16,538 nt of DNA from Promethearchaeum sp. Its GTDB lineage: Archaea > Asgardarchaeota > Lokiarchaeia > Sigyniarchaeales > Promethearchaeaceae. The notes under the pieces were generated by a model, which saw nothing but the letters and a program-made list of their open reading frames with translations, did not search any database and was not told where the DNA came from. Positions 3,459 to 15,806 of the stretch are shown piece after piece; within the stretch, counting starts at the first letter, position 1; the number at the start of each line of letters is the position of its first letter. The stretch spans positions 1 through 16,538 of the forward strand of contig JAUWOE010000069.1 in NCBI GenBank assembly GCA_030612265.1, in the 5' to 3' direction. The position numbers were made by a program, and so were the translations under genes.

Positions 3459-5693
3459 ATGAGCACAGAAGGAATTCCTAAAAAAAAATCAACCAAATCG
3501 CCTAAAACTCTGAAATTAAGAGTCCAAGAAGCTCGTAAGCGCGATGTAGGCCGCTCAATAATAAGATTGGACTCAGATTCGATGAAGCAGCTATCTGTTA
3601 ATACGGGAGAAATTATTGAAATAAAGGGAAAAGAAAAGACTACCGCTGCAATTGCATGGCCATCCTACCCTCAAGACCAAGGATTGGGAATAATACGCAT
3701 TGATAGCCGTGTTCGGAGAAATGCTAATGTAAAAATCGATGATTTTGTAGAAGTATCAAAAATTAAGGAAGAAACTACAAAATCAGTTATTCTTGCCCCT
3801 ATCTCATTAAAAATTACCCCGAATGTTCGGTTTGAGAGTTTTGTTAAAAGAAAATTACTTAATTTTCCAATTGCGAAAGGAGATTTAATTTATATTAACA
3901 TAGGAATGACCAAAGAAATTGTATTTCGTGCAATTTCGATAAAACCCCCAGGTATATCCATCATTAAACAAGTAACCCAGTTATCAATTAAGGAATCTAC
4001 TAATGAAGAAATCCCAACCGGAATTGCTTATATTACCTATGAAGATATTGGGGGTTTAGATAATGAAATTCAACAAGTCAGGGAAATGGTTGAACTTCCA
4101 TTAAAACATCCTGAACTATTCAAACGCTTGGGGATTGATCCGCCTAAAGGAATTTTATTACGTGGGCCTCCAGGATGCGGTAAAACTCTTCTAGCAAAAG
4201 CAGTAGCTAATGAAAGTCGTGCCCATTTCATTTCTATTAATGGTCCCGAAATTATGAGTAAATTTTACGGAGAATCTGAAAAGAAATTAAGAAGTTTATT
4301 TAAAGAGGCTGAAGAGAAAGGACCTAGTATAATTTTTATTGATGAGATAGATGCAATCGCTCCAAAACGAGAAAATGTCACAGGAGAAGTCGAACGCAGG
4401 GTAGTTGCACAATTACTTGCTTTAATGGATGGGTTAGAAACACGAGGAAGGGTTGTGATAATCGGTGCAACAAATCGACCTAATGCCGTGGATCCGGCAT
4501 TAAGGCGCCCCGGACGTTTCGATAGAGAATTAGAAATAAAAGTTCCAGGAGAAAAAGGAAGAATGGAGGTTCTACAAATTCATACACGTAAAATGCCATT
4601 GGATAAAGATGTTGTCCTCACTGAAATTGCCCGGAAAACCCATGGTTTTGTTGGAGCAGATATTGCAAGTTTAGTTCGCGAAACTGGAATGTATGCTTTA
4701 CGAAGGTATCTTCCAAAAATCAATCTGGAAGAGGATGATGTTGATCCTAAAATCTTGGAAAAAATGGTTGTCAAAAAGTTAGATTTTGATAACGCATTTA
4801 AGGAAATTATCCCATCGGGAATTCGTGAGGTTTTTGTCGAAATCCCATGTGTTCACTGGAATGATGTTGGAGGATTAGATTATACGAAACAACAATTGAT
4901 CGAATCGGTAGAATGGCCAATTAAAAATCCTGCAGCATATAAAAGAATGGGGGTTTCTCCTCCGACAGGTGTGTTATTATATGGCCCACCAGGGTGCGGA
5001 AAAACTTTACTGGCACGAGCAGTTGCTACTGAATCTGAAGCAAATTTTATATCAATAAAAGGACCAGAATTACTCTCAAAATGGGTCGGTGAAAGTGAAA
5101 AAGCAGTTAGAGAAGTTTTTCGGAAAGCGAAGTTAGCAGCACCTTGTATTATCTTTTTTGATGAGCTTGATAGTATTGCTCCACGTCGTGGGAGTGGCGG
5201 TTCTGATTCAGGAGTAACTGAACGAGTAATTTCTCAGCTCTTGACGGAGCTCGATGGGTTAGCTCAAACAAAACAGATAATTCTTATTGCTGCTACAAAT
5301 CGACCAGATATTATGGATCCTGCATTAATGAGACCTGGAAGGATAGATAGATTATCATATGTCGCTCCCCCTACATCCGATGATAGAGAAAAGATCTTTA
5401 AAATTTTTACTAAAAACATGCCCCTTGCTGATGATGTAGATATCCATAATTTAGCTGTTAAAAGTGAATTTTTCTCAGGAGCCGACATTGAGTCTCTTTG
5501 TAGAGAAGCAGCGATCAGAAGTCTGCGAGAAAATATAAGGGCTGATAAAATTTTTAACAAACACTTTAAAATTGCAATGGATGATATTCACCCAAGTGCG
5601 TCTCCAGAAGTTTGCGAATTTTATGAAAAATTTGAAGAAAACATGAAAAGCAGAAGAATTGGGAAACACAAAAGAACTGATTTATACGCGTAA
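3459..5693 (+). CDS. cdc48: Cdc48/VCP/p97-type tandem AAA+ ATPase
   Basis: 744-aa ORF with an N-terminal Cdc48_N-like region (IIRLDSDSMKQLSVNTGEIIEIKG). It has two AAA modules, each with Walker A GPPGCGKT, Walker B (IIFIDEID / IIFFDELD), pore loops KFYGESE / KWVGESE and second-region-of-homology ATNRP..DPALRRPGR. Confidence 0.93.
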   Translation: MSTEGIPKKKSTKSPKTLKLRVQEARKRDVGRSIIRLDSDSMKQLSVNTGEIIEIKGKEKTTAAIAWPSYPQDQGLGIIRIDSRVRRNANVKIDDFVEVSKIKEETTKSVILAPISLKITPNVRFESFVKRKLLNFPIAKGDLIYINIGMTKEIVFRAISIKPPGISIIKQVTQLSIKESTNEEIPTGIAYITYEDIGGLDNEIQQVREMVELPLKHPELFKRLGIDPPKGILLRGPPGCGKTLLAKAVANESRAHFISINGPEIMSKFYGESEKKLRSLFKEAEEKGPSIIFIDEIDAIAPKRENVTGEVERRVVAQLLALMDGLETRGRVVIIGATNRPNAVDPALRRPGRFDRELEIKVPGEKGRMEVLQIHTRKMPLDKDVVLTEIARKTHGFVGADIASLVRETGMYALRRYLPKINLEEDDVDPKILEKMVVKKLDFDNAFKEIIPSGIREVFVEIPCVHWNDVGGLDYTKQQLIESVEWPIKNPAAYKRMGVSPPTGVLLYGPPGCGKTLLARAVATESEANFISIKGPELLSKWVGESEKAVREVFRKAKLAAPCIIFFDELDSIAPRRGSGGSDSGVTERVISQLLTELDGLAQTKQIILIAATNRPDIMDPALMRPGRIDRLSYVAPPTSDDREKIFKIFTKNMPLADDVDIHNLAVKSEFFSGADIESLCREAAIRSLRENIRADKIFNKHFKIAMDDIHPSASPEVCEFYEKFEENMKSRRIGKHKRTDLYA
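5682..5690 (+). other. C-terminal HbYX-like tripeptide (L-Y-A) of Cdc48
   Basis: The protein ends ...KRTDLYA. The order hydrophobic-Tyr-X at the extreme C-terminus is the 20S-proteasome docking motif known for archaeal Cdc48/PAN. Confidence 0.55.
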
Positions 5694-5799: not shown

Positions 5800-6087
5800 A
5801 TGGCAAAAATGAAAATCGCATGGAATTCTATTCCTATCGAATATGAGATTATAAATGCATTAATCGACAACCGTGGCGAAATGCTCACCACCGACTTACA
5901 ACGCAAACTATCAAATATGTATGAAGATTTTAGTCGTACAGATTTGATGAAGCACCTATTTCGACTTGAGGTTCGTTCTTTTATACATGTCGTGGGAATT
6001 AAAAAAGATGTTTCTAAAGTAGAAATTAATAAAAATGGGCAATTTACCGAAGAAATTCGAAAAAGAATAAAAGAATTTATGCATTAA
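5800..6087 (+). CDS. Small (95 aa) predicted winged-helix protein, function unknown
   Basis: ORF with a helix-helix-helix-wing pattern (EYEIINALIDNRGEMLTTDLQRKLS .. RTDLMKHLFRLEVRSFIHVVGIKKDVSKVEIN). Its stop lies 2 nt from the stop of the convergent HerA-like gene. I recognise no family. Confidence 0.5.
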   Translation: MAKMKIAWNSIPIEYEIINALIDNRGEMLTTDLQRKLSNMYEDFSRTDLMKHLFRLEVRSFIHVVGIKKDVSKVEINKNGQFTEEIRKRIKEFMH

Positions 6088-6089
6088 AC

Positions 6090-7850
6090 CTATTCTTTAA
6101 TTTCAAAGCTATCAAAATCTATAAAATTTTCTTGGATAAAATTCGGCAAAATATTTCCTATTGGTTTTTTGGAGTTATTAAATGCATCTTTATCAACATA
6201 TTTTTGACAAATTTCAGAAATTAATTTTTCTCCACGAGGATTTGGTAATTCCCTCTTTCTAATTTTGGTAAAAATTGGATAATTTAATGCAGCGCCCATA
6301 ATCAAAGCATTACCTGTAGGTAATGTGCTAATTATATCGATTGAGCCCCTTGTTAAAGCTTCAGATGTTTGCTTTATATGTTTTAAATCATAGGGATTCG
6401 TTATTCTCATTACAATTTGAGTGTTACACTGAGATAAAGCAGTTGTACTGAGTCTGACAGGTCTTTGAGAAACCAAGACTAATTGTGCAAAAAATTTTCT
6501 TCCTTCACGTGCAATAGTTTCAAAGATATTCTTTGTTATTGCATTTTTACCTCCGTATTCAGGTAAAAAATTATGTGCTTCTTCAAGAAAAATGATAAAA
6601 GGGGAAATTTTCCCACTTCTGCGGTAATAGAATAATTTTGAAGTTATATAATGAAGTAAAATCTGTTTTTTTCTCATAGAAATTATTGAAGATAAATCCA
6701 AAATTGAAAGTTCTGCCACTTTTATTAATTCATAAATAGACGGAGATTCACTCTTGCCGAAAATGTTTAAATTATTTAAATCCGCTAACCAACCGATTAA
6801 AGTTGATTGCAATTTTGAATTTATATCGGGATTTTCTGATAATTCAGTAATGATGTCATTAATATCATAACCCTTTAAAACGTCATCATCTGTTGAAGTT
6901 TTACTCTTTTTGAATTTCTTTCTACAATTTTTTATAGATTTTCGAAGTTCTCGTAATTGTGGAACAGAAATACCTGGTTGATAATGTTTAAAATCATATT
7001 CTGTCAAATCTGGCACTCCAATTTGTATAAATAATCCATTAAAAATTGTAATTTTATTTTGTATTCTGTTTAAACTTGAAATTTTTGATTGTTCTAACTT
7101 TTCTTGGGTATTATCTTCTATTTTTTCCTTTAAAAAGCGATATTCACCATGAATATCTATAAGAAATAGAGCGGGTGTTCCTAGATCTTTTGGACGAGAT
7201 AAAAGTTCTTCAAATAAAACTGATATTAGATAACTTTTTCCCGCTCCCGATTGAGCCAATATTGCTACATGTTTATTAAAAAGACGATTTATATTCAAAG
7301 TGACATCTTGATTATAATTGCTTAAATTTCCAATATTTAGTCCTTTATCATCTAGACCTAAGAAATTTCTAAGATAATCTCCTTTTAGAATATATACCTC
7401 ATTACCTGGATTGACTGGAAATCCTACTCTTTGGATCTTCTTAAAAATTGAAGGATCAATTTTTTCAGAAAATTTATTTTTAGAGCGAACTGTTCCTAAC
7501 AGATGTACGTCGACAATGTTACATTCCCATTGATCACTCGGGAAGAAATTTTGCATATTAACATTTGCAAGATTAAAGTTTTTCACTGTTTGAACATTGG
7601 AGAAATATTGATTATTCGTTCTGATTTGCTCAATTATACCAATCACAAAACCTTCATGTGATTCTACTAAACAATATTGGCCCTGTTGTATAAAAAGTGA
7701 GTTTTTTGATGTGAATGCAGACTGATTATTAGTAAGGATGAATGAATATTCAAATATATTAGGAGATAAGTTATTAATTCCTGAGATAACAATTCCAATT
7801 GATTCGATTTGCTGTTTTGATTTTGAATCAAGAACTTTTTGAAGTGTCAT
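6090..7850 (-). CDS. HerA/FtsK-superfamily (DUF87-type) ATPase with N-terminal HAS-barrel-like domain
   Basis: 586-aa ORF with an N-terminal barrel-like segment (IGIVISG...GQYCLVESHEGFVIGIIEQI). It has Walker A AQSGAGKSY (codons at 7233..7250), a DIHGEY motif, Walker B FIIFLEEAHNFLP and the HerA-typical REGRKFFAQLVLVSQRPVRLSTTALSQCNTQIVMRITNPYD. A TATA-like ATTTTAAAAA on the minus strand at 7875..7884 lies about 30 nt upstream of the ATG. Confidence 0.8.
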   Translation of the reverse strand: MTLQKVLDSKSKQQIESIGIVISGINNLSPNIFEYSFILTNNQSAFTSKNSLFIQQGQYCLVESHEGFVIGIIEQIRTNNQYFSNVQTVKNFNLANVNMQNFFPSDQWECNIVDVHLLGTVRSKNKFSEKIDPSIFKKIQRVGFPVNPGNEVYILKGDYLRNFLGLDDKGLNIGNLSNYNQDVTLNINRLFNKHVAILAQSGAGKSYLISVLFEELLSRPKDLGTPALFLIDIHGEYRFLKEKIEDNTQEKLEQSKISSLNRIQNKITIFNGLFIQIGVPDLTEYDFKHYQPGISVPQLRELRKSIKNCRKKFKKSKTSTDDDVLKGYDINDIITELSENPDINSKLQSTLIGWLADLNNLNIFGKSESPSIYELIKVAELSILDLSSIISMRKKQILLHYITSKLFYYRRSGKISPFIIFLEEAHNFLPEYGGKNAITKNIFETIAREGRKFFAQLVLVSQRPVRLSTTALSQCNTQIVMRITNPYDLKHIKQTSEALTRGSIDIISTLPTGNALIMGAALNYPIFTKIRKRELPNPRGEKLISEICQKYVDKDAFNNSKKPIGNILPNFIQENFIDFDSFEIKE

Positions 7851-7960
7851 TATTTCGAGTTATTTTCCACAGCCTTTTTAAAATGACGAGTCTAACGGTT
7901 TAGTTCATTTGATTCTTAGAAAAAAAATTCTTCCAATTATTCAATGATAACTTTTTTGAA

Positions 7961-7984
7961 AAATGTTTCCATATGGAAACATTT
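7961..7984. promoter_or_regulatory. Perfect 24-bp palindrome (candidate operator) overlapping the BRE/TATA region of the 8023 operon
   Basis: AAATGTTTCCAT|ATGGAAACATTT is its own reverse complement with no mismatch. Its 3' end overlaps a TATA-like TTTATATG at 7982..7989, about 35-40 nt upstream of ATG 8023. It lies in the 172-nt divergent intergenic region shared with the HerA-like gene. Confidence 0.5.
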
Positions 7985-8022
7985 ATATGTTTTTAATCTA
8001 TTTTTTTTTTGATTAAGAAAAT

Positions 8023-9393
8023 ATGACTCCCAAAGATCATAAAAAAAATAGGGAAATTCCCATAAGTTTACGGGGTATCGAATCAATTCTCCGTGTTCTA
8101 AACAATGAACTTAAGGACCCTTCTAGTATTAGACAAATTAGTGAAGTTACTGGTCTTTCAATGCGGGTAGCTAAAAATATTTTAATGCAATTAGAAAATC
8201 TTAAGCAAGTAGAACGAGTTTTAGAAAAAGGGCAAATACTACCAAAATGGGGTTTAACTAGGCTAGGAAAGGAAAATGCTAAAGCAATTGAAAAAAGTTC
8301 CAATGGTTTGAATAAAAAACCGAGTAATAGATTATCAGAACTTTTAATTAGTAATATACAAATAGCAAAAAATATAGAGGAACAAAATACAAAAATTGGA
8401 GCAACCCATCGAAATTTCATAAATTTATTAGATAAATTAAAATTAAATTTGAGTAAATCTATGGGTATTTGTTATAACTTGGAACAACCAATTTTTGCTG
8501 AACGGTTGGGAGATATTATACGCAAATTAAAATCCATCAAAACCAATTTTTCGAGTTTTCGTGTAAATCCCTTATCTTTTTATGATTTACATAAAAAAGG
8601 GACTAAAAAGAAAATTTCCGCTCGAAAAAAGAAAGATTTTCTTTCAGAGATTTTATTTATCAATCAGATCTTGCTTAATCAGCTTAATTTTATCTCAGAG
8701 TTGGAATTAGAGGTAAGTAAAAACCTCGAGCAAGAAAACTATAGATTATTTAGTGAAATTTATAATCAAATAACAGACCAAATCAGGATTTTAGATTTTT
8801 TACTCCAAAAAAGAACCAGTGTTGATGATGGTATTCACATACTTGCAGAAGATGAATTAAATTTACTTCAAAAGAATCAAGTTGGGTTAAGTTTGCTTAA
8901 AAAATTCTTACCTCCATTAATCCAAGATAATAGAAAAGAAGAAATACTGAAAGAAAGCCTAATATCACTTATTTCTGATTTATTGGGAGTGCACTCAAAA
9001 AATAATAGTAAGCCATATAATATCCCACTTGTTTCTTTTTATGAATTAGCCAAAGACAAGTGTAACTATACAGGCTTTACAGTTGAGAATTTAGAAAATG
9101 TGTTAAACCAACTAGCTGAACAAGGCTTAATATCCGGGATAATTGAAATAAAAGATGATGAAAATCATATTTTTAAAATTGTCCAGTTAAAACCGTATGA
9201 TATTTCAGTTGACGAAATAAAACTTCTTCGATTAGCAATTCAATTAAAATCTTTTTCAATGGCTGAAGTTATGGAAAATTTAAGTTGGAATCAATCAAAA
9301 GTAGAAAAAATACTTCAAACTATGACAAATAACGGATTACTCCGGCATTCTCAATCATATCTACAAGGAGATAAATGGTATATATTAATGTAA
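8023..9393 (+). CDS. Multi-winged-helix/coiled-coil protein: N-terminal MarR/TrmB-like wHTH, long helical middle, C-terminal tandem WH resembling ESCRT-II EAP30 (Vps22/Vps36)
   Basis: 456-aa ORF. The N-terminal wHTH is SIRQISEVTGLSMRVAKNILMQLENLKQVERV. Residues ~100-330 are helical and heptad-like. The C-terminal residues 334-455 (nt 9022..9390) form two WH units: FTVENLENVLNQLAEQGLISGIIEIKDDENHIFKIVQLKP and FSMAEVMENLSWNQSKVEKILQTMTNNGLLRHSQSYLQGDKWYIL. I am confident it is a gene and only moderately to weakly confident of the EAP30 likeness. Confidence 0.6.
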   Translation: MTPKDHKKNREIPISLRGIESILRVLNNELKDPSSIRQISEVTGLSMRVAKNILMQLENLKQVERVLEKGQILPKWGLTRLGKENAKAIEKSSNGLNKKPSNRLSELLISNIQIAKNIEEQNTKIGATHRNFINLLDKLKLNLSKSMGICYNLEQPIFAERLGDIIRKLKSIKTNFSSFRVNPLSFYDLHKKGTKKKISARKKKDFLSEILFINQILLNQLNFISELELEVSKNLEQENYRLFSEIYNQITDQIRILDFLLQKRTSVDDGIHILAEDELNLLQKNQVGLSLLKKFLPPLIQDNRKEEILKESLISLISDLLGVHSKNNSKPYNIPLVSFYELAKDKCNYTGFTVENLENVLNQLAEQGLISGIIEIKDDENHIFKIVQLKPYDISVDEIKLLRLAIQLKSFSMAEVMENLSWNQSKVEKILQTMTNNGLLRHSQSYLQGDKWYILM

Positions 9394-9417
9394 AATTAAA
9401 AAAAGAGTGAAATTATA

Positions 9418-10314
9418 ATGTTAAGAAAGAAAAACGGCAGTAATGGTAAAGATCGATTTCCATCAATTACTTCATGGCCCCAGGATGATTCAAAAGATCA
9501 AAATTCTCAATTAATTTATTGTTTTCCCAAACAAAACGATAATATTAAGAAAGCAAAATTCTTTAATGTTAAAGAACATGAACGCGCGTTATATCTAAAA
9601 CACGGTGAATTAATTGCAGAACTTGGTGGCGGAACGTATGAATTAGAGAAAAAGTCCCGCGCTAAGGGTACAAAAATTATTTGGTTTGACACTTCAATGC
9701 ATCAAATTTTATGGGGTATCCCAGAGATAAATGGCATTCCAAGTCAAGACGGGTTTATATTTGGAATGTTTGGTGATCTTAAATTACATATTTACAATGT
9801 CAGCATTTTCTATAAATACGTTATTGGCGGAAGTAAAGAATGGACGATACAACAATTGAAAGATTGGATAATAAGCCTTTTTTATGTTATTCTCCGTGAT
9901 ATTTTTAAGGAATTTGATATTTCAGAAATTTTCCAAGAATCTCGAGAAATAGTTATGAATAAAGTGATTTCCAAAGTTTGTGATGAAATGAATCTTTATG
10001 GCTTGGAATTGGACGCGTTTAATATTTTAGGTTTTAAAACACCAGAAAATGCAAAAGAAGTTCTTAATTCCAAACAAGAACAAGCGTATCAATTCAAGAA
10101 ATGGCTTGAAAATGAAAAAAAACGAGATATCGAAGATCGAGAAATCATTCAAGATCGAATAAAATCTTTAAAGAGTCGTTTGCAAGGGCTTCAAAACGAT
10201 TTACTGGAAAGTAAAATCACCAGGGAAGAATATGATTACAAGTGCCAAACAATCAAAGAATTCATAGAAGAAGCAAATTCAGAACTGGAACCGGATAGAA
10301 GGTATGAAAAATAA
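9418..10314 (+). CDS. SPFH/band-7 superfamily protein of the YdjI (Band_7_1, COG4260-like) type with C-terminal coiled coil and no Zn ribbon
   Basis: 298-aa ORF. SITSWPQDD..LIYCFPKQNDNIKKAKFFNVKEHERALYLKHGELIAELGGGTYELE matches the N-terminal pattern of this family (I..W....Y.FP....I..ga.l.V.E.q.Av....G.....lgpG.Y.L). This is followed by WGIP..DG..FGMFGDLKLHIYN and GLELDAFNILGFKTPE. Residues ~215-298 are coiled coil. It starts 24 nt after the upstream gene. Confidence 0.6.
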   Translation: MLRKKNGSNGKDRFPSITSWPQDDSKDQNSQLIYCFPKQNDNIKKAKFFNVKEHERALYLKHGELIAELGGGTYELEKKSRAKGTKIIWFDTSMHQILWGIPEINGIPSQDGFIFGMFGDLKLHIYNVSIFYKYVIGGSKEWTIQQLKDWIISLFYVILRDIFKEFDISEIFQESREIVMNKVISKVCDEMNLYGLELDAFNILGFKTPENAKEVLNSKQEQAYQFKKWLENEKKRDIEDREIIQDRIKSLKSRLQGLQNDLLESKITREEYDYKCQTIKEFIEEANSELEPDRRYEK

Positions 10315-10334
10315 TATTTAGGAGAAAAATCAAA

Positions 10335-13300
10335 ATGAGAAATGGAAATAAAAAAAGGACACATAGTCAAATTACATTAATTATATTAGGAATTTGTATC
10401 ATTCTTATTTCAAGCATTGAAACCCATGCATTGTATAATGATTCTGCGCAAAATCAGGAGAAAATTTTTGAAGTAAATGCAGCAACATTACTTATTTCAC
10501 ATGAACCAATTCGGATAGACGGAAATAATGATTTAGAAGCTTTTTGCGCTGGTAATGGGACTGATGGATTATCATGGGGAACCGCTTTTAAAATTGAAAA
10601 TTATTCAATTACTTCAGGTGAGCATTCGGGAATTTTTATCCAAAATACCGATAAATTTCTAATAATCAATAATTGTTCAATCAAAAATTTTGATGAAGAG
10701 AAGGTTACTGATAACGGGACTTACTACGAAAAAGGGATTGAAATTCAAAATTGTTCGAATGTTAAAATCACTAATTGTTCATTGATAGACAACATATATG
10801 GGATCTATTTAAACTCATCAACCAATAATACAATAATTCAAAATAATTGTTCTTTAAATGATTATGGATATACATTGGTGAATTCAGAAAATAACACCCT
10901 ATTCAATAATACTGCTTCAAATAATGAAGGTGATGGATTTAGATTAGTTGGAAGTATCCACAATAATATCTCAACAAATATTGCAAATTTTAATAATTGG
11001 AATGGTATTACTCTTGATCAGTATTATTCAGATATTAGTGCTGTGAGTAGTCAAGAAAATTTAATAGTAAACAATATAATTGAAAATAATCAAGAAAATG
11101 GTATTAGTTTCTCATATTCTGATAGTAACTCAGTACTTAATAACTGTATTTCGAATAATCGAGGTTCTGGAATTACATTAAGATTTTCTTCTGATAACTA
11201 CTTATCTTTTAATTTAATTAATAATAATAATAACGCAGGAATAGAACTTTTCGATGATTGTAACTGGAATTTGATTTTAAATAATAATATTAGTGACAAT
11301 TCCAATGGAATATATATCATTAATTCTGGTCAAAATACTATTGGAGAAAACATCATAACTAATCATACTAGTGGTTATGGTATTTTAATTCTATATGAGG
11401 ATGAATATCAATCAGAACAGAATATTTATGGAAATATTTTTGAAAATAATTCACAAGATATATCATATGAGCAAATTACTTATTACTCTTATTCACCACC
11501 ACCTTATTATGTTTATGTGATTATAGCAGTTTTTATTATTGGAATCGTAGTAATACTCATGATAAATCGAAAAAAAATAAAAAAACGATGGAAAAAATTA
11601 ATTTCTGATCGCGAAATAAGAAAAAGCGAACAGAAAATTGAACGAGCGAAAAAAAATAAGGAAAGTAGTTTAAAATTATCAAAAATATCTGTAGAAAATA
11701 TTGATCGGGAAGATTCTAAATTAAGTTTGCTAAGAATTTATAAAATATTTAAGGTTATTGGATGGCTATGTGTATTATCTATAATGTTTCTATTTATAGG
11801 ATTTACCTTCGGAACAGGAGCTCCATATTTCCTTATCGATATTCCTATTTTGATAATTTTATGGATTATTAATCGAAAAAAAATCTCATATCAATGGAAT
11901 AAATTCATTGCTGAGCGCGAAAACGAACTGAGAATTAATAGAGATGAAAGGACTAATAAACACGATTCAAAAACTTCAAAAATTTTAATAAAAAATATGA
12001 ATCGGAAAAAATCGAAATCAGGAAAACAATTTATTTTTAAATTACTAAAAGTACTTTCTTGGCTTTTTGTATTATTCTGGATGTTTCTATTTATAGTTTT
12101 TAGCTTCGTAACAGGAGATCAATATTTCCTTATCGATATTCCTATTGTGATCATTATTTGGTTTTTTTATAGAAAAAAGACAAAATTTAATTATCATAAA
12201 AGGAAAACCAATCATTTAATTAAAATTAGCAAAAGTAAAACTAAGAAAGCTATAGATTATGCAAAAATGCATAAATATAAAAGATCCAGGAATTATTGGT
12301 TAAGTTCGGAACGAAATTATCGAAGAGCTCTAAGACTAGTACCGGATTTTCATAAAATTGATTTTCTTGAGAAAAAAATAATTTCCATTAAACAGAATAT
12401 ATTAGCTACCTATATTTCTGAAGGTATTCTTCTAAGTAAAATTGCCTGGGCTAAATTCCAAGAAAATCACTTTTCCCAAGCAAAAAAACAATATTCTAAG
12501 AGTATTTCGGCAATCGAATTAGTTTTAAAAAGTATTGAAACAGAGAATGTTTTCAGTGAAGAAGAGGAGTTTCCAATTACCGCTTCCTTAATTTTTGAAA
12601 TTTTGCAATTCTTAGAGAAAAACCTAGATCAAATTAAAATTAAAGAAAATAATAAAAAGAAATCAAAGGTTTTTATAAAATCCAGTGATGTACAAAAGAT
12701 AAATGAGAAAATTGTTAAATCAATAAAAGAAATGAATGAATCTTTATGGATTTATTGCCAATCACTTGATTCTCATGAAGATTTACTCGATTTAGATGTA
12801 TTATCGAAAATATTGGAGAGTAAATTAACAAAATCAGAAAAAATATTGAACTCGGTTCAAGAACAAATGCAATATTTATTAAATTACATGCAAACTTCAA
12901 CCAATAGATATGAGAGAAATGGTGTTGAAACAAAATCGATTGCAATGAATATAAACCGCACTTTAGAACAAGAAAGAATTGAAAATAAACATCTGAAAAT
13001 TATTCGAGAATATGAATATATCGGGGGTAAAATTCGCTTGAAAGTTGGCATGGTGAATCATTCAGATAATGTTTTAACAAATTTAGCACTAAGATTCGAT
13101 TTACCTGAATCTTTAAAGTGGATTATCCATGAACCGAATTTAAAACGCAGAGGTGATACTATTCATATTGCAAAACTGGGTGGGAATGAAAAAATCGCAA
13201 TATCGCTTTATTTAGAACCAATAAATTGTTTAGAAAGTACGATTAATGCTACTTTAACCTATTTTGACAATAAAGATCGTCCACAAGCAATTATAATGGC

Positions 13301-13865
13301 ACCGAAAAAAGTTTCGATATCATGTCCAATTTTCTTTACAAGAGAAGAAGCCAACTTAGCCCGAGTAAAAAAAATACAATTGGAGCTTAAATATGAAGAC
13401 CATAAAATTTTCCCGCTTGTTAAATCGAATAAATCTGAATTGATTTTTAACAAAATTCTCGCTTCTATTGGAAAACATGATGTCAAATTAGTAAGCAAAG
13501 AGTATTCCCTTGATAATAATAAGGGCGAAGCATATTTCTATGGGATAACTAAAGTTAAGAAGGAAAAAATGATAATTTATTTATTATTGGATTCAAACCA
13601 TCAAATTATTGAAATTTCCGTAAATGGTGATGATCAAGAACCGATTACAGGGCTTCTTGCTGAACTTGAAAGCGAAATTCGTGATAAATTGCTAGTTCAT
13701 AATATTATCGAAGATTCCGATAAATTCCATGACATAAATACATCTATTCTTTTAGGGAATTGTCCTTTTTGTAATGGTCCTATTTCACAAACTAGTATAT
13801 CACTTTTCAAGAAAGGCGAAACTATAACATGCAAATATTGTGATACTATTATAACACCCTATTAA
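10335..13865 (+). CDS. Large (1176 aa) multi-domain membrane protein: signal peptide, PbH1/NosD-like right-handed beta-helix ectodomain, TM, duplicated TM-hairpin modules, cytoplasmic helical + beta-sandwich + alpha/beta region, C-terminal zinc ribbon
   Basis: AGGAG lies about 9 nt upstream of the ATG. The N-terminus is KKRTHSQITLIILGICIILISSIETHA. Residues ~55-375 hold repeated rungs of the type NCSIKNF / IEIQNCSNVKITNCSLIDNIYGIYLNSSTNNTIIQNNCS / NNEGDGFRLVGSIHNNIS / NQENGISFSYSDSNSVLNNCISNNRGSGITL. The first TM is YVYVIIAVFIIGIVVILMI followed by NRKK. Two TM hairpins follow. The C-terminus is CPFC-x18-CKYC (13761..13841). Confidence 0.8.
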   Translation: MRNGNKKRTHSQITLIILGICIILISSIETHALYNDSAQNQEKIFEVNAATLLISHEPIRIDGNNDLEAFCAGNGTDGLSWGTAFKIENYSITSGEHSGIFIQNTDKFLIINNCSIKNFDEEKVTDNGTYYEKGIEIQNCSNVKITNCSLIDNIYGIYLNSSTNNTIIQNNCSLNDYGYTLVNSENNTLFNNTASNNEGDGFRLVGSIHNNISTNIANFNNWNGITLDQYYSDISAVSSQENLIVNNIIENNQENGISFSYSDSNSVLNNCISNNRGSGITLRFSSDNYLSFNLINNNNNAGIELFDDCNWNLILNNNISDNSNGIYIINSGQNTIGENIITNHTSGYGILILYEDEYQSEQNIYGNIFENNSQDISYEQITYYSYSPPPYYVYVIIAVFIIGIVVILMINRKKIKKRWKKLISDREIRKSEQKIERAKKNKESSLKLSKISVENIDREDSKLSLLRIYKIFKVIGWLCVLSIMFLFIGFTFGTGAPYFLIDIPILIILWIINRKKISYQWNKFIAERENELRINRDERTNKHDSKTSKILIKNMNRKKSKSGKQFIFKLLKVLSWLFVLFWMFLFIVFSFVTGDQYFLIDIPIVIIIWFFYRKKTKFNYHKRKTNHLIKISKSKTKKAIDYAKMHKYKRSRNYWLSSERNYRRALRLVPDFHKIDFLEKKIISIKQNILATYISEGILLSKIAWAKFQENHFSQAKKQYSKSISAIELVLKSIETENVFSEEEEFPITASLIFEILQFLEKNLDQIKIKENNKKKSKVFIKSSDVQKINEKIVKSIKEMNESLWIYCQSLDSHEDLLDLDVLSKILESKLTKSEKILNSVQEQMQYLLNYMQTSTNRYERNGVETKSIAMNINRTLEQERIENKHLKIIREYEYIGGKIRLKVGMVNHSDNVLTNLALRFDLPESLKWIIHEPNLKRRGDTIHIAKLGGNEKIAISLYLEPINCLESTINATLTYFDNKDRPQAIIMAPKKVSISCPIFFTREEANLARVKKIQLELKYEDHKIFPLVKSNKSELIFNKILASIGKHDVKLVSKEYSLDNNKGEAYFYGITKVKKEKMIIYLLLDSNHQIIEISVNGDDQEPITGLLAELESEIRDKLLVHNIIEDSDKFHDINTSILLGNCPFCNGPISQTSISLFKKGETITCKYCDTIITPY
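11562..12167 (+). repeat. Intragenic tandem duplication (102 aa + 100 aa units) encoding a basic juxtamembrane linker plus TM hairpin
   Basis: Unit 1 is 11562..11867 (INRKKIKKRWKKLISDRE...KIFKVIGWLCVLSIMFLFIGFTFGTGAPYFLIDIPILIILWI). Unit 2 is 11868..12167 (INRKKISYQWNKFIAERE...KLLKVLSWLFVLFWMFLFIVFSFVTGDQYFLIDIPIVIIIWFF). They share an identical 25-nt core ATATTTCCTTATCGATATTCCTATT at 11825..11849 and 12122..12146. Confidence 0.85.
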
Positions 13866-13889: not shown

Positions 13890-13908
13890 TTTTTTTAGTT
13901 TATTTTTT
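13890..13908 (+). terminator. Double oligo-T tract (T7 then T6) after the operon's last gene, a candidate archaeal terminator
   Basis: CCTGTTTTTTTAGTTTATTTTTTAA begins about 25 nt after the stop at 13865. No comparable intergenic T-tract lies in the 24-nt and 20-nt gaps within the operon. Confidence 0.3.
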
Positions 13909-13930: not shown

Positions 13931-14340
13931 TTAAATAGTGGGTGGAATTAAAGCACACTTTGATTTCTTCATTCCTTTAGATAAGAAATAATCATATCGA
14001 CTTCTATGTTTTTGATAGAATTTTTTTCCGTAGAGGACAACACCTTCACCTATCGCATCGATGGCTGTAAGGGCATAACTTTCAAACACTCTTCAAATTC
14101 TTCTGTTTTATAGCAAAATAAATCTAAAGATAAAAGAGGGGCTGATTTTATAACCCAATCACTTCTCTCAATAAAACTCCCTTTAAAATCACCTACTAAT
14201 AATATATCATAATCACTGTATCGTGTGGCTTCATCTCGCCCTTGGGAACCAAATAAAATTACCATATTTAAATTAATTTCACTTTTTACCTGATTAATCA
14301 TGGATTGAAAAAGGGTTTGCCATTTATTCAAAGATTTCAT
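13931..14340 (-). pseudogene. MNT-type (DNA pol beta-like) nucleotidyltransferase, split by a frameshift
   Basis: The 96-aa ORF 14050..14340 carries the NTase motif ILFGSQGRDEATRYSDYDILLV and is preceded by GGAGG. It ends prematurely at ...KTEEFEECLKVMPLQPSMR*. A second frame (13931..14092, below the ORF-track length cutoff) reads RVFESYALTAIDAIGEGVVLYGKKFYQKHRSRYDYFLSKGMKKSKCALIPPTI*, the typical C-terminal helix of this family. This implies a 1-nt indel between about 14074 and 14092. Confidence 0.6.
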
Positions 14341-14429: not shown

Positions 14430-15061
14430 CTATAATAATAAAACAAAATTTTTCAATAGTTTTATCCCATCATTAAACGATGAGGGATCATCCGGATATT
14501 CTGGATGAAATTGAACACCATAAATTTGCCGAGATTTATACTTAATGATCTGAATTTTACAAGAAGGGCTGGAGGCATATATTTTGAAAATATCTGTAAA
14601 TCTTGGAACGAATTCGATTTCTTCTAAGTGGCTTTCGAACACATGGATTTGATCTTTAGGAAATAATTCAAATTTTGGATTTATATTTAGAATTAAAGAT
14701 TTTTCATTTTCAATATTAATAATTGTATTATTAATCGGTTTGATCTCGAAACCATATGCACACGCGATTAATTGTAGACCATAAATATACCTAAAATCGG
14801 TTTCTCATATTTTCTTATGAAATTCATTTCTGTTTGATATTTTTCAATGATTTTTATATCTGATAACATGTGATAAGAACCGGTTAAAAGTAAACCATCC
14901 ATTTTTTTCAAAATATCGATTGTTTCAGGTTTTTCTAATTGTGAATAATGGATATGTTTCCAAATTAATTTATCTTCACAACTCTCAAAGTATTTGTTAA
15001 ATCTTCGTTCAAATTTATCAATCTCTTTATCAAAATTATTAATAATACCTAGAATTTTCAT
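14430..15061 (-). pseudogene. Class I glutamine amidotransferase (GATase1, COG0518/GuaA-N-like), frameshifted at the catalytic Cys codon
   Basis: ORF 14768..15061 ends ...KPILGIFMVYN*. Shifting one frame at about 14782..14787 gives YGLQLIACAYGFEIKPINN...DQIHVFESHLEEIEF, which runs without stops into ORF 14430..14642 (..IYGVQFHPEY, the His/Glu of the triad). The expected nucleophile elbow is GIC-YGLQ. The observed GGTATATTTATGGTCTACAA is what a single G deletion from ...ATA TGT TAT GGT CTA CAA would leave. Confidence 0.65.
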
Positions 15062-15158: not shown

Positions 15159-15806
15159 TTAAGCAGAAATAGGTAAATTGTTTACTTGGTTGAATTTCTT
15201 ACCGCAATGTTCGCAAAATGTATATGCATTATCTGTTAACATATCTATCATCTTTGGTGTGAATTCTTCTCCACAATCTGTGCAGAAAAACTTAGGACTA
15301 TTAATTGCTGATTTCTTTGGGTGAGAGATTATCGTTGTTTTTGAATTTAATTCTTCAGATCTAGATTCATATCCAGGTTGTTTTGTGCGAATAATTCTCA
15401 TTTCTTTGGGTCTTCTAACAACATACTTTTTAGGTTGAGGTGGAGATTGAACGATTCTTTTATTTTTCTCTTCTTTGAACAATTTCGGATAGAAAATATT
15501 GACAATTTGTTTTAAATTTGAAAAATAATTATCAAGAATTGTTGATAAGTCTTCTCCCCCTGAAATCAGTCCAATTGGCGCAGTTAGAAATGCTACAATA
15601 AGTGTATAGAACATAATTGATAGCCCTAAAAAGGTGGCTTTCAAGATTTCAATAACTAATAGGAAGGTTAATTTTAAAATTTCAAAAGTAAACCAAATGG
15701 CCAAGATCGATATAACTATTGCAAGAATTAAACCAATTATTCTCGTTTCTAAACCTCCGCTCATAAACCAGTTTTCAAGCGTATTCCATGCGTAATCGAG
15801 TATCAT
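15159..15806 (-). CDS. Membrane protein (2-3 N-terminal TM helices), basic/Pro-rich linker, C-terminal zinc ribbon; function unknown
   Basis: 215-aa ORF with hydrophobic segments IIGLILAIVISILAIWFTFEIL and FLGLSIMFYTLIVAFLTAPIGLI. The linker is low-complexity (QSPPQPKKYVVRRPKEMRIIRTKQPGYESRSEE). The C-terminus is CTDC-x22-CEHC. Confidence 0.6.
   Translation of the reverse strand: MILDYAWNTLENWFMSGGLETRIIGLILAIVISILAIWFTFEILKLTFLLVIEILKATFLGLSIMFYTLIVAFLTAPIGLISGGEDLSTILDNYFSNLKQIVNIFYPKLFKEEKNKRIVQSPPQPKKYVVRRPKEMRIIRTKQPGYESRSEELNSKTTIISHPKKSAINSPKFFCTDCGEEFTPKMIDMLTDNAYTFCEHCGKKFNQVNNLPISA

Follow-up and report, generated by a model that had tools for sequence, protein, structure and literature searches.

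Introduction

In the archaeal 'Meth_adaptin' loci, of which Methanosalsum zhilinae WP_013898571-WP_013898578 is an example, Vps4 and ESCRT-III are encoded together with an SPFH protein carrying a coiled coil and a Zn ribbon, two appendage-region proteins (one of them with a Zn ribbon) and ProX (Makarova et al. 2024 mBio, PMC10936438). The same study noted ESCRT-II-like winged-helix (WH) proteins in related archaeal systems, as well as Asgard multidomain proteins in which appendage regions are fused to TPR, PCI and other domains, and cited the link between YdjI and PspA. The adaptin appendage Pfam domains have also been reported to have homologues in Asgard archaea (Eme et al. 2023, PMC10307638). 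In Bacillus subtilis, the soluble SPFH protein YdjI has no anchor of its own, is recruited by the membrane proteins YdjG and YdjH, and itself recruits PspA (Scholz et al. 2021, PMC8581546); both recruitment steps of YdjI (SamI), together with an effect on transcription, have been described (Scholz et al. 2021, PMC8581546; Baur et al. 2026, bioRxiv 10.64898/2026.02.06.704340). Here we characterise a three-gene operon of Promethearchaeum sp. (Lokiarchaeia; GenBank assembly GCA_030612265.1, contig JAUWOE010000069.1), located in a stretch of 16,538 nucleotides (nt) which was analysed at its full length and is referred to below as the window. Genes 1, 2 and 3 of this operon encode, respectively, an ESCRT-II-like protein, a soluble SPFH protein and a large membrane protein with an adaptin-appendage-like (ear-like) tail.

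The reading that we favour, tentatively and with the reservations set out in the Discussion, is that of an autoregulated, membrane-anchored SPFH/ESCRT-II-like scaffold of Lokiarchaeia, built of ESCRT- and coat-related parts. A full-text literature search found no published description of the corresponding locus (DSAG12_01531-01533) of the cultured strain Promethearchaeum syntrophicum MK-D1, and neither the MK-D1 locus tags nor the organism name is mentioned in the text supplements of PMC10936438.

Results

Operon layout

In the window (GC ~0.29; all positions are those of the whole stretch), the three open reading frames (ORFs) lie on the + strand and are separated by gaps of only 24 nt (9394-9417, genes 1/2) and 20 nt (10315-10334, genes 2/3), with no T-run apparent in either gap on reading the sequence (Table 1). 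A first-pass annotation, made from the sequence alone, had listed these ORFs and gaps, an AGGAG element before gene 3, an upstream palindrome with a TATA-like element and downstream oligo-T tracts, all of which we confirmed. Its proposal of a single transcription unit likewise agrees with the tight, co-directional spacing of the genes between a promoter-like element at the 5' end and oligo-T tracts at the 3' end. A sigma-70 promoter scan, a model irrelevant to archaea, returned 40 matches versus 38.5 in shuffled sequences and was discarded.

Gene 1 is an additional EAP30-type paralog with an N-terminal winged helix-turn-helix

The product of gene 1 was modelled with AlphaFold2 (AF2) from 11 homologs (pLDDT 79.8), and the best Foldseek matches of this model in the PDB were human and yeast ESCRT-II structures, namely 3cuq_A, 2zme_A and 1u5t_A for Vps22, and 2zme_B and 3cuq_B for Vps36 (E 1.7e-4 to 1.1e-2, ~230 columns). 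At the sequence level, the family profile matched human SNF8/Vps22 in the PDB (E 0.0099), and an exhaustive profile search over 1.84 billion representatives returned 124 proteins. Pfam EAP30 was present in 55 of the 69 distant matches, and hhalign aligned the gene-1 family to this distant EAP30 set over 298 columns, spanning the tandem WH and the preceding helices, with 99.6% probability (E 1.8e-24). Those relatives that have been named carry the label 'EAP30/Vps36 family vacuolar-sorting protein' and come from Baldr-, Odin-, Loki-, Sif- and Jord-archaeal metagenome-assembled genomes. A Pfam scan of gene 1 itself gave sub-threshold winged helix-turn-helix (wHTH) matches only, the weak matches being of TrmB/IclR/MarR/Lrs14 type, and NCBIfam offered no useful name for genes 1 and 2. 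The sequence matches point to gene 1 as a member of the EAP30 superfamily and not of the curated Pfam family; it is at this superfamily level that the earlier description of an 'ESCRT-II-like WH' protein stands. That description had overlooked the N-terminal wHTH, which is the best-conserved domain of gene 1 (68% identity in distant relatives versus 33-47% for the other domains).

Gene 1 shares 85% amino acid (aa) identity with its MK-D1 ortholog, the hypothetical protein DSAG12_01531. MK-D1 encodes canonical Vps22, Vps25, Vps36, ESCRT-III, Vps4 and ubiquitin elsewhere, and its separate Vps22, Vps25 and Vps36 carry other N-terminal domains (preprint 10.1101/2025.11.01.685982). Since a canonical ESCRT-II set is thus already in place, the EAP30 similarity marks gene 1 as an extra, divergent paralog of the Vps22/Vps36 type, to which an N-terminal wHTH and a helical stalk have been added. 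The alternative that gene 1 is a regular ESCRT-II subunit (an ortholog of Vps22 or Vps36) and the operon part of the core ESCRT pathway was already disfavoured and is very improbable. It would account for the EAP30-superfamily tandem WH, but not for the separate Vps22, Vps25 and Vps36 genes of MK-D1, for a score below the Pfam EAP30 cutoff, or for a family confined to a few Promethearchaeota lineages; nor did gene 1 ever lie beside genes for Vps25, Vps4, ESCRT-III or ESCRT-I (Vps23, Vps28), either in the window or in the 14 related loci described below.

Gene 2 is a soluble SPFH protein and gene 3 carries a conserved ear-like tail

Both Pfam matches of gene 2 exceeded their gathering (GA) cutoffs: Band_7_1 (PF13421) with E 2.5e-9 and 37.5 bits versus GA 24, and Band_7 with E 3.5e-7 and 30.9 bits versus GA 23.6. 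A hydropathy scan detected no transmembrane (TM) or other hydrophobic segment in the protein, which agrees with its first assignment as an SPFH protein of the YdjI type. Its last ~70 residues form a conserved, charged helical or coiled-coil region in the family alignment, with no Cys cluster or YdjI-like Zn finger at the C-terminus. Matches to PDB profiles were weak (stomatin, 0.0035; HflK; prohibitin).

Gene 3 encodes an extracellular beta-helix supported by Pfam NosD (E 8.6e-30), Beta_helix (E 9.4e-29) and the TIGR03804 para_beta_helix repeat (E 1.5e-19). With a NosD equivalog score of 48.5 versus a cutoff of 300 bits, it is not NosD itself. Five TM helices were found, including two duplicated hairpins (local alignment score 213 versus 33 +/- 5.6 in shuffles), with a topology that makes the beta-helix extracellular and residues 613-1176 cytoplasmic. 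The beta-helix, the hairpin duplication and the four-Cys Zn ribbon had all been recognised by eye; the first-pass annotation had missed the appendage-like domain before the ribbon. An AF2 model of the cytoplasmic part (53 sequences, pLDDT 81.7) shows, in order, long helices, a disordered low-confidence linker, a beta-sandwich, an alpha/beta platform and the Zn ribbon. The best 13 PDB matches of this tail in Foldseek were all adaptin or COPI appendages (E 1e-9 to 1.5e-5), among them COPI 9qpq_H (1e-9), AP2 alpha (3.4e-9), AP2 beta2 (2e-8) and gamma-COP (9e-7), with alignments of ~245 columns that cover both subdomains; GAE and TRAP-beta sandwiches ranked next. The sandwich alone reached a TM-score of 0.74 on the GGA GAE domain. 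Pfam Alpha_adaptinC2 was matched below threshold by 31 of the 53 family members (best E 1.7e-4, <=22 bits versus GA 27.6), while gene 3 itself matched neither Alpha_adaptinC2 nor B2-adapt-app_C. As for the helical region, the family profile matched TPR weakly (E 0.004), and candidate assignments as Vps28-C or MIT were rejected (no Pfam match, noise in a PDB phmmer search, and a non-significant Vps4A MIT match with E 0.48); MIT domains do occur in 6 of the 53 ear-family paralogs, not in gene 3.

A search with the cytoplasmic part retrieved at least 68 Asgard proteins (Promethearchaeota, Hermod-, Thor- and Lokiarchaeia), in which the last ~290 residues are always C-terminal and 45-54% identical, and follow unrelated N-termini (beta-helix, FN3, TPR, WD40, Ras/Roc or PCI). 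Between close relatives, identity within gene 3 was 63% in the extracellular part, 36% in the TM part and 90% in the ear. The conserved part of gene 3 is the cytoplasmic adaptin-appendage-like and Zn-ribbon module, not the beta-helix.

Three loci with ear and Zn-ribbon paralogs (L010 8001-12675, L011 5448-10157 and L012 7466-10000) show apparently conserved contexts of another kind, being either tandem pairs by ribosomal-protein genes (S28e, L7Ae, L24e, S6e, RpoN) and gelsolin, or neighbours of gelsolin and an Arf-like GTPase. A general linkage of such paralogs to SPFH and EAP30 genes is ruled out by these differing contexts. A divergent ear-like paralog of 419 aa is encoded at 915-2174 of locus L001, 8 kb upstream of the operon there; it matches the ear profile weakly (E 2.5e-9) over the sandwich and part of the platform.

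Gene 1 and the SPFH gene form an obligate pair behind a conserved palindrome

Relatives of gene 1, down to 35-37% identity, were found in 14 distinct loci with unrelated flanks. In every one of them an SPFH gene follows gene 1 on the same strand after a gap of 19-110 nt, an arrangement which, given the unrelated flanks, is not due to chance. Gene 1 and the SPFH gene are an obligate pair, and the third partner varies with the lineage, often ending in the platform and Zn ribbon. The three genes are not conserved as a trio: they stand together in three Promethearchaeum genomes, only the pair is invariant, and gene 3 gives way to unrelated partners or is missing.

The upstream palindrome, which had been noted without being recognised as a conserved operator, has a core, TYCCATATGGRA, that occurs a single time in the window. 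The core is found once per gene-1 locus, 56-76 nt before the first ATG of the operon, and is kept in 13 of the 14 loci. The palindrome directly abuts a TATA-like TTTATATA or TTTAAATA, and this junction is kept in L002, L007, L008, L043, L052, L104 and L136. Operator variants comprise one mismatch each in MK-D1 and L134, a degenerate form in L135 and loss through a rearrangement in L133; the core is missing from the paralog loci L010-L012. Extra half-sites lie upstream in L001, L007 and L136, and in L008 the palindrome and TATA element precede two small genes for TM and double-Zn-ribbon proteins (6880-7942), which head the operon before gene 1. When metagenomes were scanned for the 17-mer operator, all five loci with the extended motif among the matches listed were gene-1 loci with the site upstream. 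The scan otherwise returned mostly random matches and had to be filtered for the extended motif before it could be used, so that no regulon is defined by it.

The putative recognition helix of gene 1 reads SMRV[AV]KNIL.QL where the operator is TTCCATATGGAA, and SLRV[TA]KNIL.EL in the clade with TCCCATATGGGA; this difference may reflect just one evolutionary event. Taken together, the retention of the operator and the conserved N-terminal wHTH suggest, at the level of sequence, that gene 1 regulates its own operon through this domain.

The same observations bear on a reading in which gene 1 is a multi-wHTH transcription factor acting on an SPFH membrane-homeostasis gene and on any genes downstream of it, its EAP30 likeness reflecting no more than shared WH ancestry and gene 3 being an incidental, co-transcribed surface protein. 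An operator beside the TATA box in 13/14 loci, an N-terminal wHTH more conserved than any other gene-1 domain, the weak TrmB/IclR/MarR/Lrs14-type matches and a third gene that is variable or absent would all suit such a regulator. We nevertheless regard it as unlikely, because the 298-column alignment (99.6%) is to bona fide Asgard EAP30/Vps36 proteins and the best PDB folds of gene 1 are those of ESCRT-II rather than of transcription factors. Moreover, third genes of several lineages share the platform and Zn-ribbon module, which indicates that the third position is not filled at random, and the strict pairing of gene 1 with SPFH across short gaps suggests a partnership at the protein level.

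The third partner varies between lineages

In the three Promethearchaeum genomes the third gene encodes the beta-helix, TM, ear and Zn-ribbon protein described above. In L001, a multi-TM N-terminus is joined to the same helical, ear and Zn-ribbon tail, the ear and Zn ribbon being 68% identical versus ~40% for genes 1 and 2. The third gene of L007 encodes a multi-TM protein and ends at the contig end. L002/L003, L008 and L043 have a soluble protein of 360 aa, followed by genes for a ThiF-type E1, JAB, a UFC1-like E2 and PCI; this protein (L002/L008) matches only the platform and Zn ribbon of gene 3 (hhalign 93.7%, E 1.9e-7). Zn-ribbon-LRR proteins occupy the third position in L104 and a TPR protein of 843 aa, without an ear, in L133/L134, while L052 and L135 have nothing co-directional there.

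The conjugation cluster of the sister clade (ubiquitin/UFM1-like) runs in the same direction as the pair at L002 3836-8794, L008 11555-14510 and L043 6235-10412. Downstream genes of L104 (43-3538, - strand) and L043 (4451-5128 and 7420-8277) encode LRR/Zn-ribbon and PCI-like proteins with a shared C-terminal motif, ~D..I.EF...L...F..W.K.E..K.GK, which may be a docking peptide or a WH tail.

Fusions to HEPN domains in some gene-1 orthologs open a further reading, in which the operon would be an antiviral or stress conflict system. Here perturbation of the membrane or envelope would be registered by SPFH and a fast-evolving sensor that varies between lineages (a surface beta-helix, an LRR or a TPR protein), gene 1 would act as a signalling or effector adaptor whose output in some lineages is an RNase, and the E1/E2/JAB genes of sister loci would serve as in bacterial Bil/CBASS-type defence. 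Two gene-1 orthogroups, P0084 (L133 2692-4497, L134 2588-4393) and P0089 (L135 699-2537), have, at the C-terminus, a Swt1-like HEPN domain (Pfam 3.7e-6 and 1.1e-8) whose RNxxxH motif is intact, and a divergent TIR-LRR gene (L133 1614-2645) abuts one of these loci. Consistent with the same reading are the extreme variability or absence of the third gene, the narrow distribution (13 and 12 word-index matches among 5.8 billion proteins), the fast divergence that gene 3 shows, relative to its ear, in the extracellular and TM regions, the E1/JAB/E2-like/PCI genes after the pair in L002, L008 and L043, and the HerA ATPase and minimal nucleotidyltransferase that flank the operon in the window. The E1/E2/JAB sets of sister loci may represent proto-ubiquitin sorting or Bil/CBASS-like defence machinery.

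We consider a conflict system the main and a serious rival to the scaffold, although on balance doubtful. Genes 2 and 3 had no match in PADLOC-DB v2 and gene 1 only noise at E>1e-3; the window copy of gene 1 has neither HEPN nor another effector domain; the TIR neighbour was seen at one locus only, and HerA is unlinked in other lineages. The locus sits amid housekeeping genes and is syntenic in the three Promethearchaeum genomes, and long vertical inheritance is suggested by a promoter and operator that are kept even where protein identity has fallen to 37%.

Neighbouring genes in the window

The housekeeping genes in question are eIF5A, NAD kinase, Nob1-like PIN, FEN1 and CDC48 (the AAA protein at 3459-5693). 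Gene order is the same in MK-D1, where eIF5A, NAD kinase, PIN_6, FEN1, CDC48, a 95-aa ORF and HerA (minus strand) precede the operon, consisting of DSAG12_01531 and the two genes downstream of it. In the window, the stand-alone HerA/DUF87 ATPase gene (6090-7850, - strand; PADLOC HerA E 8.8e-56) is oriented divergently to gene 1, and the 95-aa ORF (5800-6087, + strand), which has no family match, converges on it; no NurA, Mre11 or Rad50 gene was found near HerA in the window. Linkage of HerA and this ORF to the operon is confined to Promethearchaeum. HerA (6090-7850, minus) and CDC48 were ruled out as parts of the system, being neighbours of the operon only in Promethearchaeum. Family searches of the window ORFs found no Snf7, PspA or Vps4 gene.

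On the other side of the operon, a minimal nucleotidyltransferase (NTP_transf_2/Polbeta, 96 aa; 14050-14340, - strand) lies between gene 3 and a class-I glutamine-amidotransferase-like gene. It is missing at the corresponding position in MK-D1 and may be a small insertion resembling a toxin-antitoxin (TA) element. The amidotransferase-like gene (14430-15061, - strand) is split into two frames (ORFs 14768-15061 and 14430-14642, with a break near 14784-14786); it is intact in MK-D1 (211 aa), and the window copy has either become a pseudogene or been broken by an assembly frameshift. A TM and Zn-ribbon protein encoded outside the operon (15159-15806, - strand) resembles the small TM and double-Zn-ribbon proteins of L008.

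Table 1 Features of the three-gene operon and its flanking signals in the window.
Feature	Positions	Strand	Basis or remark
Candidate operator: perfect 24-nt palindrome AAATGTTTCCATATGGAAACATTT, core TTCCATATGGAA at 7967-7978	7961-7984	.	upstream of gene 1
TATA-box-like TTTATATG	7982-7989	+	overlaps right arm of palindrome; ~35 nt 5' of gene-1 ATG
Gene 1 (456 aa): wHTH, helical stalk, EAP30-type tandem WH	8023-9393	+	
Gene 1, N-terminal winged helix, aa 16-78; candidate DNA-binding domain	8068-8256	+	AF2 model; weak wHTH Pfam/NCBIfam matches
Gene 1, helical stalk/bundle, aa 100-321	8320-8985	+	AF2 model helices; no Pfam family
Gene 1, C-terminal tandem winged helix, aa 333-388 and 396-454, EAP30 (Vps22/Vps36) superfamily	9019-9384	+	
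Shine-Dalgarno-like GAGTGA	9405-9410	+	7 nt 5' of gene-2 ATG; sequence reading
Gene 2 (298 aa): TM-less SPFH (~aa 50-225), C-terminal coiled coil (~aa 226-290)	9418-10314	+	Pfam, hydropathy
Shine-Dalgarno-like AGGAG	10320-10324	+	10 nt 5' of gene-3 ATG; sequence reading
Gene 3 (1176 aa): multidomain integral membrane protein	10335-13865	+	
Gene 3, N-terminal signal/anchor helix, aa 15-33	10377-10433	+	hydropathy scan
Gene 3, extracellular right-handed parallel beta-helix, NosD-like, ~aa 50-386	10482-11492	+	Pfam, NCBIfam
Gene 3, membrane region: TM aa 392-410, duplicated hairpins aa 466-512 and 567-612	11508-12170	+	
Gene 3, cytoplasmic helical region, aa 614-853, weakly TPR-like	12174-12893	+	AF2; family profile; kept in many paralogs
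Gene 3, Ig-like beta-sandwich, aa 887-995; proximal appendage-like subdomain	12993-13319	+	AF2, Foldseek
Gene 3, alpha/beta platform of appendage-like region, aa 1008-1121	13356-13697	+	AF2, Foldseek, hhalign
Gene 3, C-terminal Zn ribbon CxxC...CxxC, C1143/C1146/C1166/C1169	13752-13862	+	Cys invariant in family
Oligo-T tracts, archaeal-type terminator candidates: T7 13890-13896, T6 13903-13908	13890-13908	+	3' of gene-3 stop

Discussion

In the scaffold that we favour, gene 3 would anchor an oligomer of gene 2 (a ring or basket) on the membrane's inner side, by analogy with the recruitment of YdjI by YdjG/H, and the anchoring role would fall to another third partner in other lineages. Gene 1 would attach to the hub formed by ear and Zn ribbon and to the SPFH coiled coil. 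The EAP30 WH pair of gene 1 would then connect the assembly to Vps25 and ESCRT-III encoded elsewhere (MK-D1 has both), and binding of its N-terminal wHTH to the operator would control expression of the operon, possibly according to whether gene 1 is retained at the membrane. The lineage-specific end, for sensing or anchoring, would be the surface beta-helix. The membrane-remodelling or envelope-stress function suggested in the first-pass annotation stays hypothetical, as does any link to ESCRT-III.

Several observations weigh against this scaffold. No ESCRT-III (Snf7), PspA or Vps4 gene was found in any of the 14 related loci, and gene 1 gave no match to Pfam EAP30 (PF04157) at E<=1. Its DNA binding is something that we infer from co-conservation only. 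Global TM-scores of the gene-3 tail are low (0.36-0.40), probably due to differing angles between subdomains, and its likeness to appendages is one at fold level; PDB sequence profiles miss the ear and detect only the TPR-like helices. Anchoring by the third gene cannot be a general step, since that gene encodes a TPR, LRR or soluble protein in some lineages and is absent from two loci. Finally, the HEPN fusions (in a subclade), the TIR-LRR neighbour and the E1/E2/JAB neighbours fit a conflict system at least equally well.

A bolder version of the scaffold, which we regard as distinctly unlikely, is an Asgard-specific signalling device in which the ESCRT-II-type protein doubles as a sequence-specific, DNA-binding autoregulator, is held at the membrane by an SPFH cage and an ear-Zn receptor tail, and is released or engaged upon perturbation of the membrane or envelope. 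If true, it would be a prokaryotic unit joining three eukaryote-signature modules (an ESCRT-II WH core, an SPFH microdomain and a coat-adaptor ear), and would echo the dual history of EAP30 in transcription and trafficking. Should the conflict-system explanation be the true one, ESCRT-II-like and coat-like domains would be used in archaeal immunity. The operon offers, in the cultured strain MK-D1, a compact linked set of an EAP30-type protein, a soluble SPFH protein, an ear-like membrane protein and a defined operator. If these links hold, the association of SPFH, appendage and ESCRT proposed on the basis of euryarchaeal loci would extend to the eukaryote-proximal lineage, independently of co-location with Vps4 and ESCRT-III.

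Among the parts with known counterparts, gene 1 resembles Vps22 (EAP30/SNF8) and Vps36 in its C-terminal tandem WH core, which follows helices. It differs from them in its additional N-terminal wHTH and ~220-aa helical stalk, in having none of the GLUE/OB, steadiness-box or Zn-ribbon additions, and in being encoded with SPFH rather than with ESCRT-I, ESCRT-III or Vps4, as a fourth EAP30-type paralog beside the MK-D1 set. The C-terminal part of gene 3, an Ig-like sandwich and an alpha/beta platform after a low-confidence linker, resembles the ears of AP2 alpha- and beta2-adaptin and of COPI beta- and gamma-COP. In gene 3, however, this ear sits on a TM and TPR-like helical protein instead of a HEAT/ARM-repeat trunk, is followed by a Zn ribbon and belongs to a family with highly variable N-termini, the global TM-score against the known ears being as low as stated above.

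As an assembly, the operon shares with pspA-ydjGHI (samGHI), a known membrane-stress complex, an anchorless SPFH protein of Band_7_1 type encoded beside an integral membrane protein. It has, in contrast, no PspA or ESCRT-III gene, and an ESCRT-II-like protein occupies the position of the ESCRT-III-like one; its membrane partner (gene 3, with beta-helix and ear) is an unrelated protein, and the Zn-finger motif of YdjI has no equivalent in gene 2. Compared by description with the Meth_adaptin loci, the operon likewise combines a coiled-coil SPFH protein with an appendage and Zn-ribbon protein, the appendage (Ig and a TBP-like platform in Meth_adaptin) being membrane-linked in both. Unlike those loci, the operon and its relatives are without Vps4, ESCRT-III and ProX, carry the Zn ribbon on the appendage protein and not on SPFH, add a conserved operator and an EAP30-type paralog that bears a wHTH at its N-terminus, and belong to Lokiarchaeia. 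The operon thus brings together, in a new arrangement, building blocks that had already been noticed in the vicinity of archaeal ESCRT systems; what sets it apart is the wHTH-EAP30 paralog instead of ESCRT-III/Vps4, the dedicated operator and the swappable third partner.

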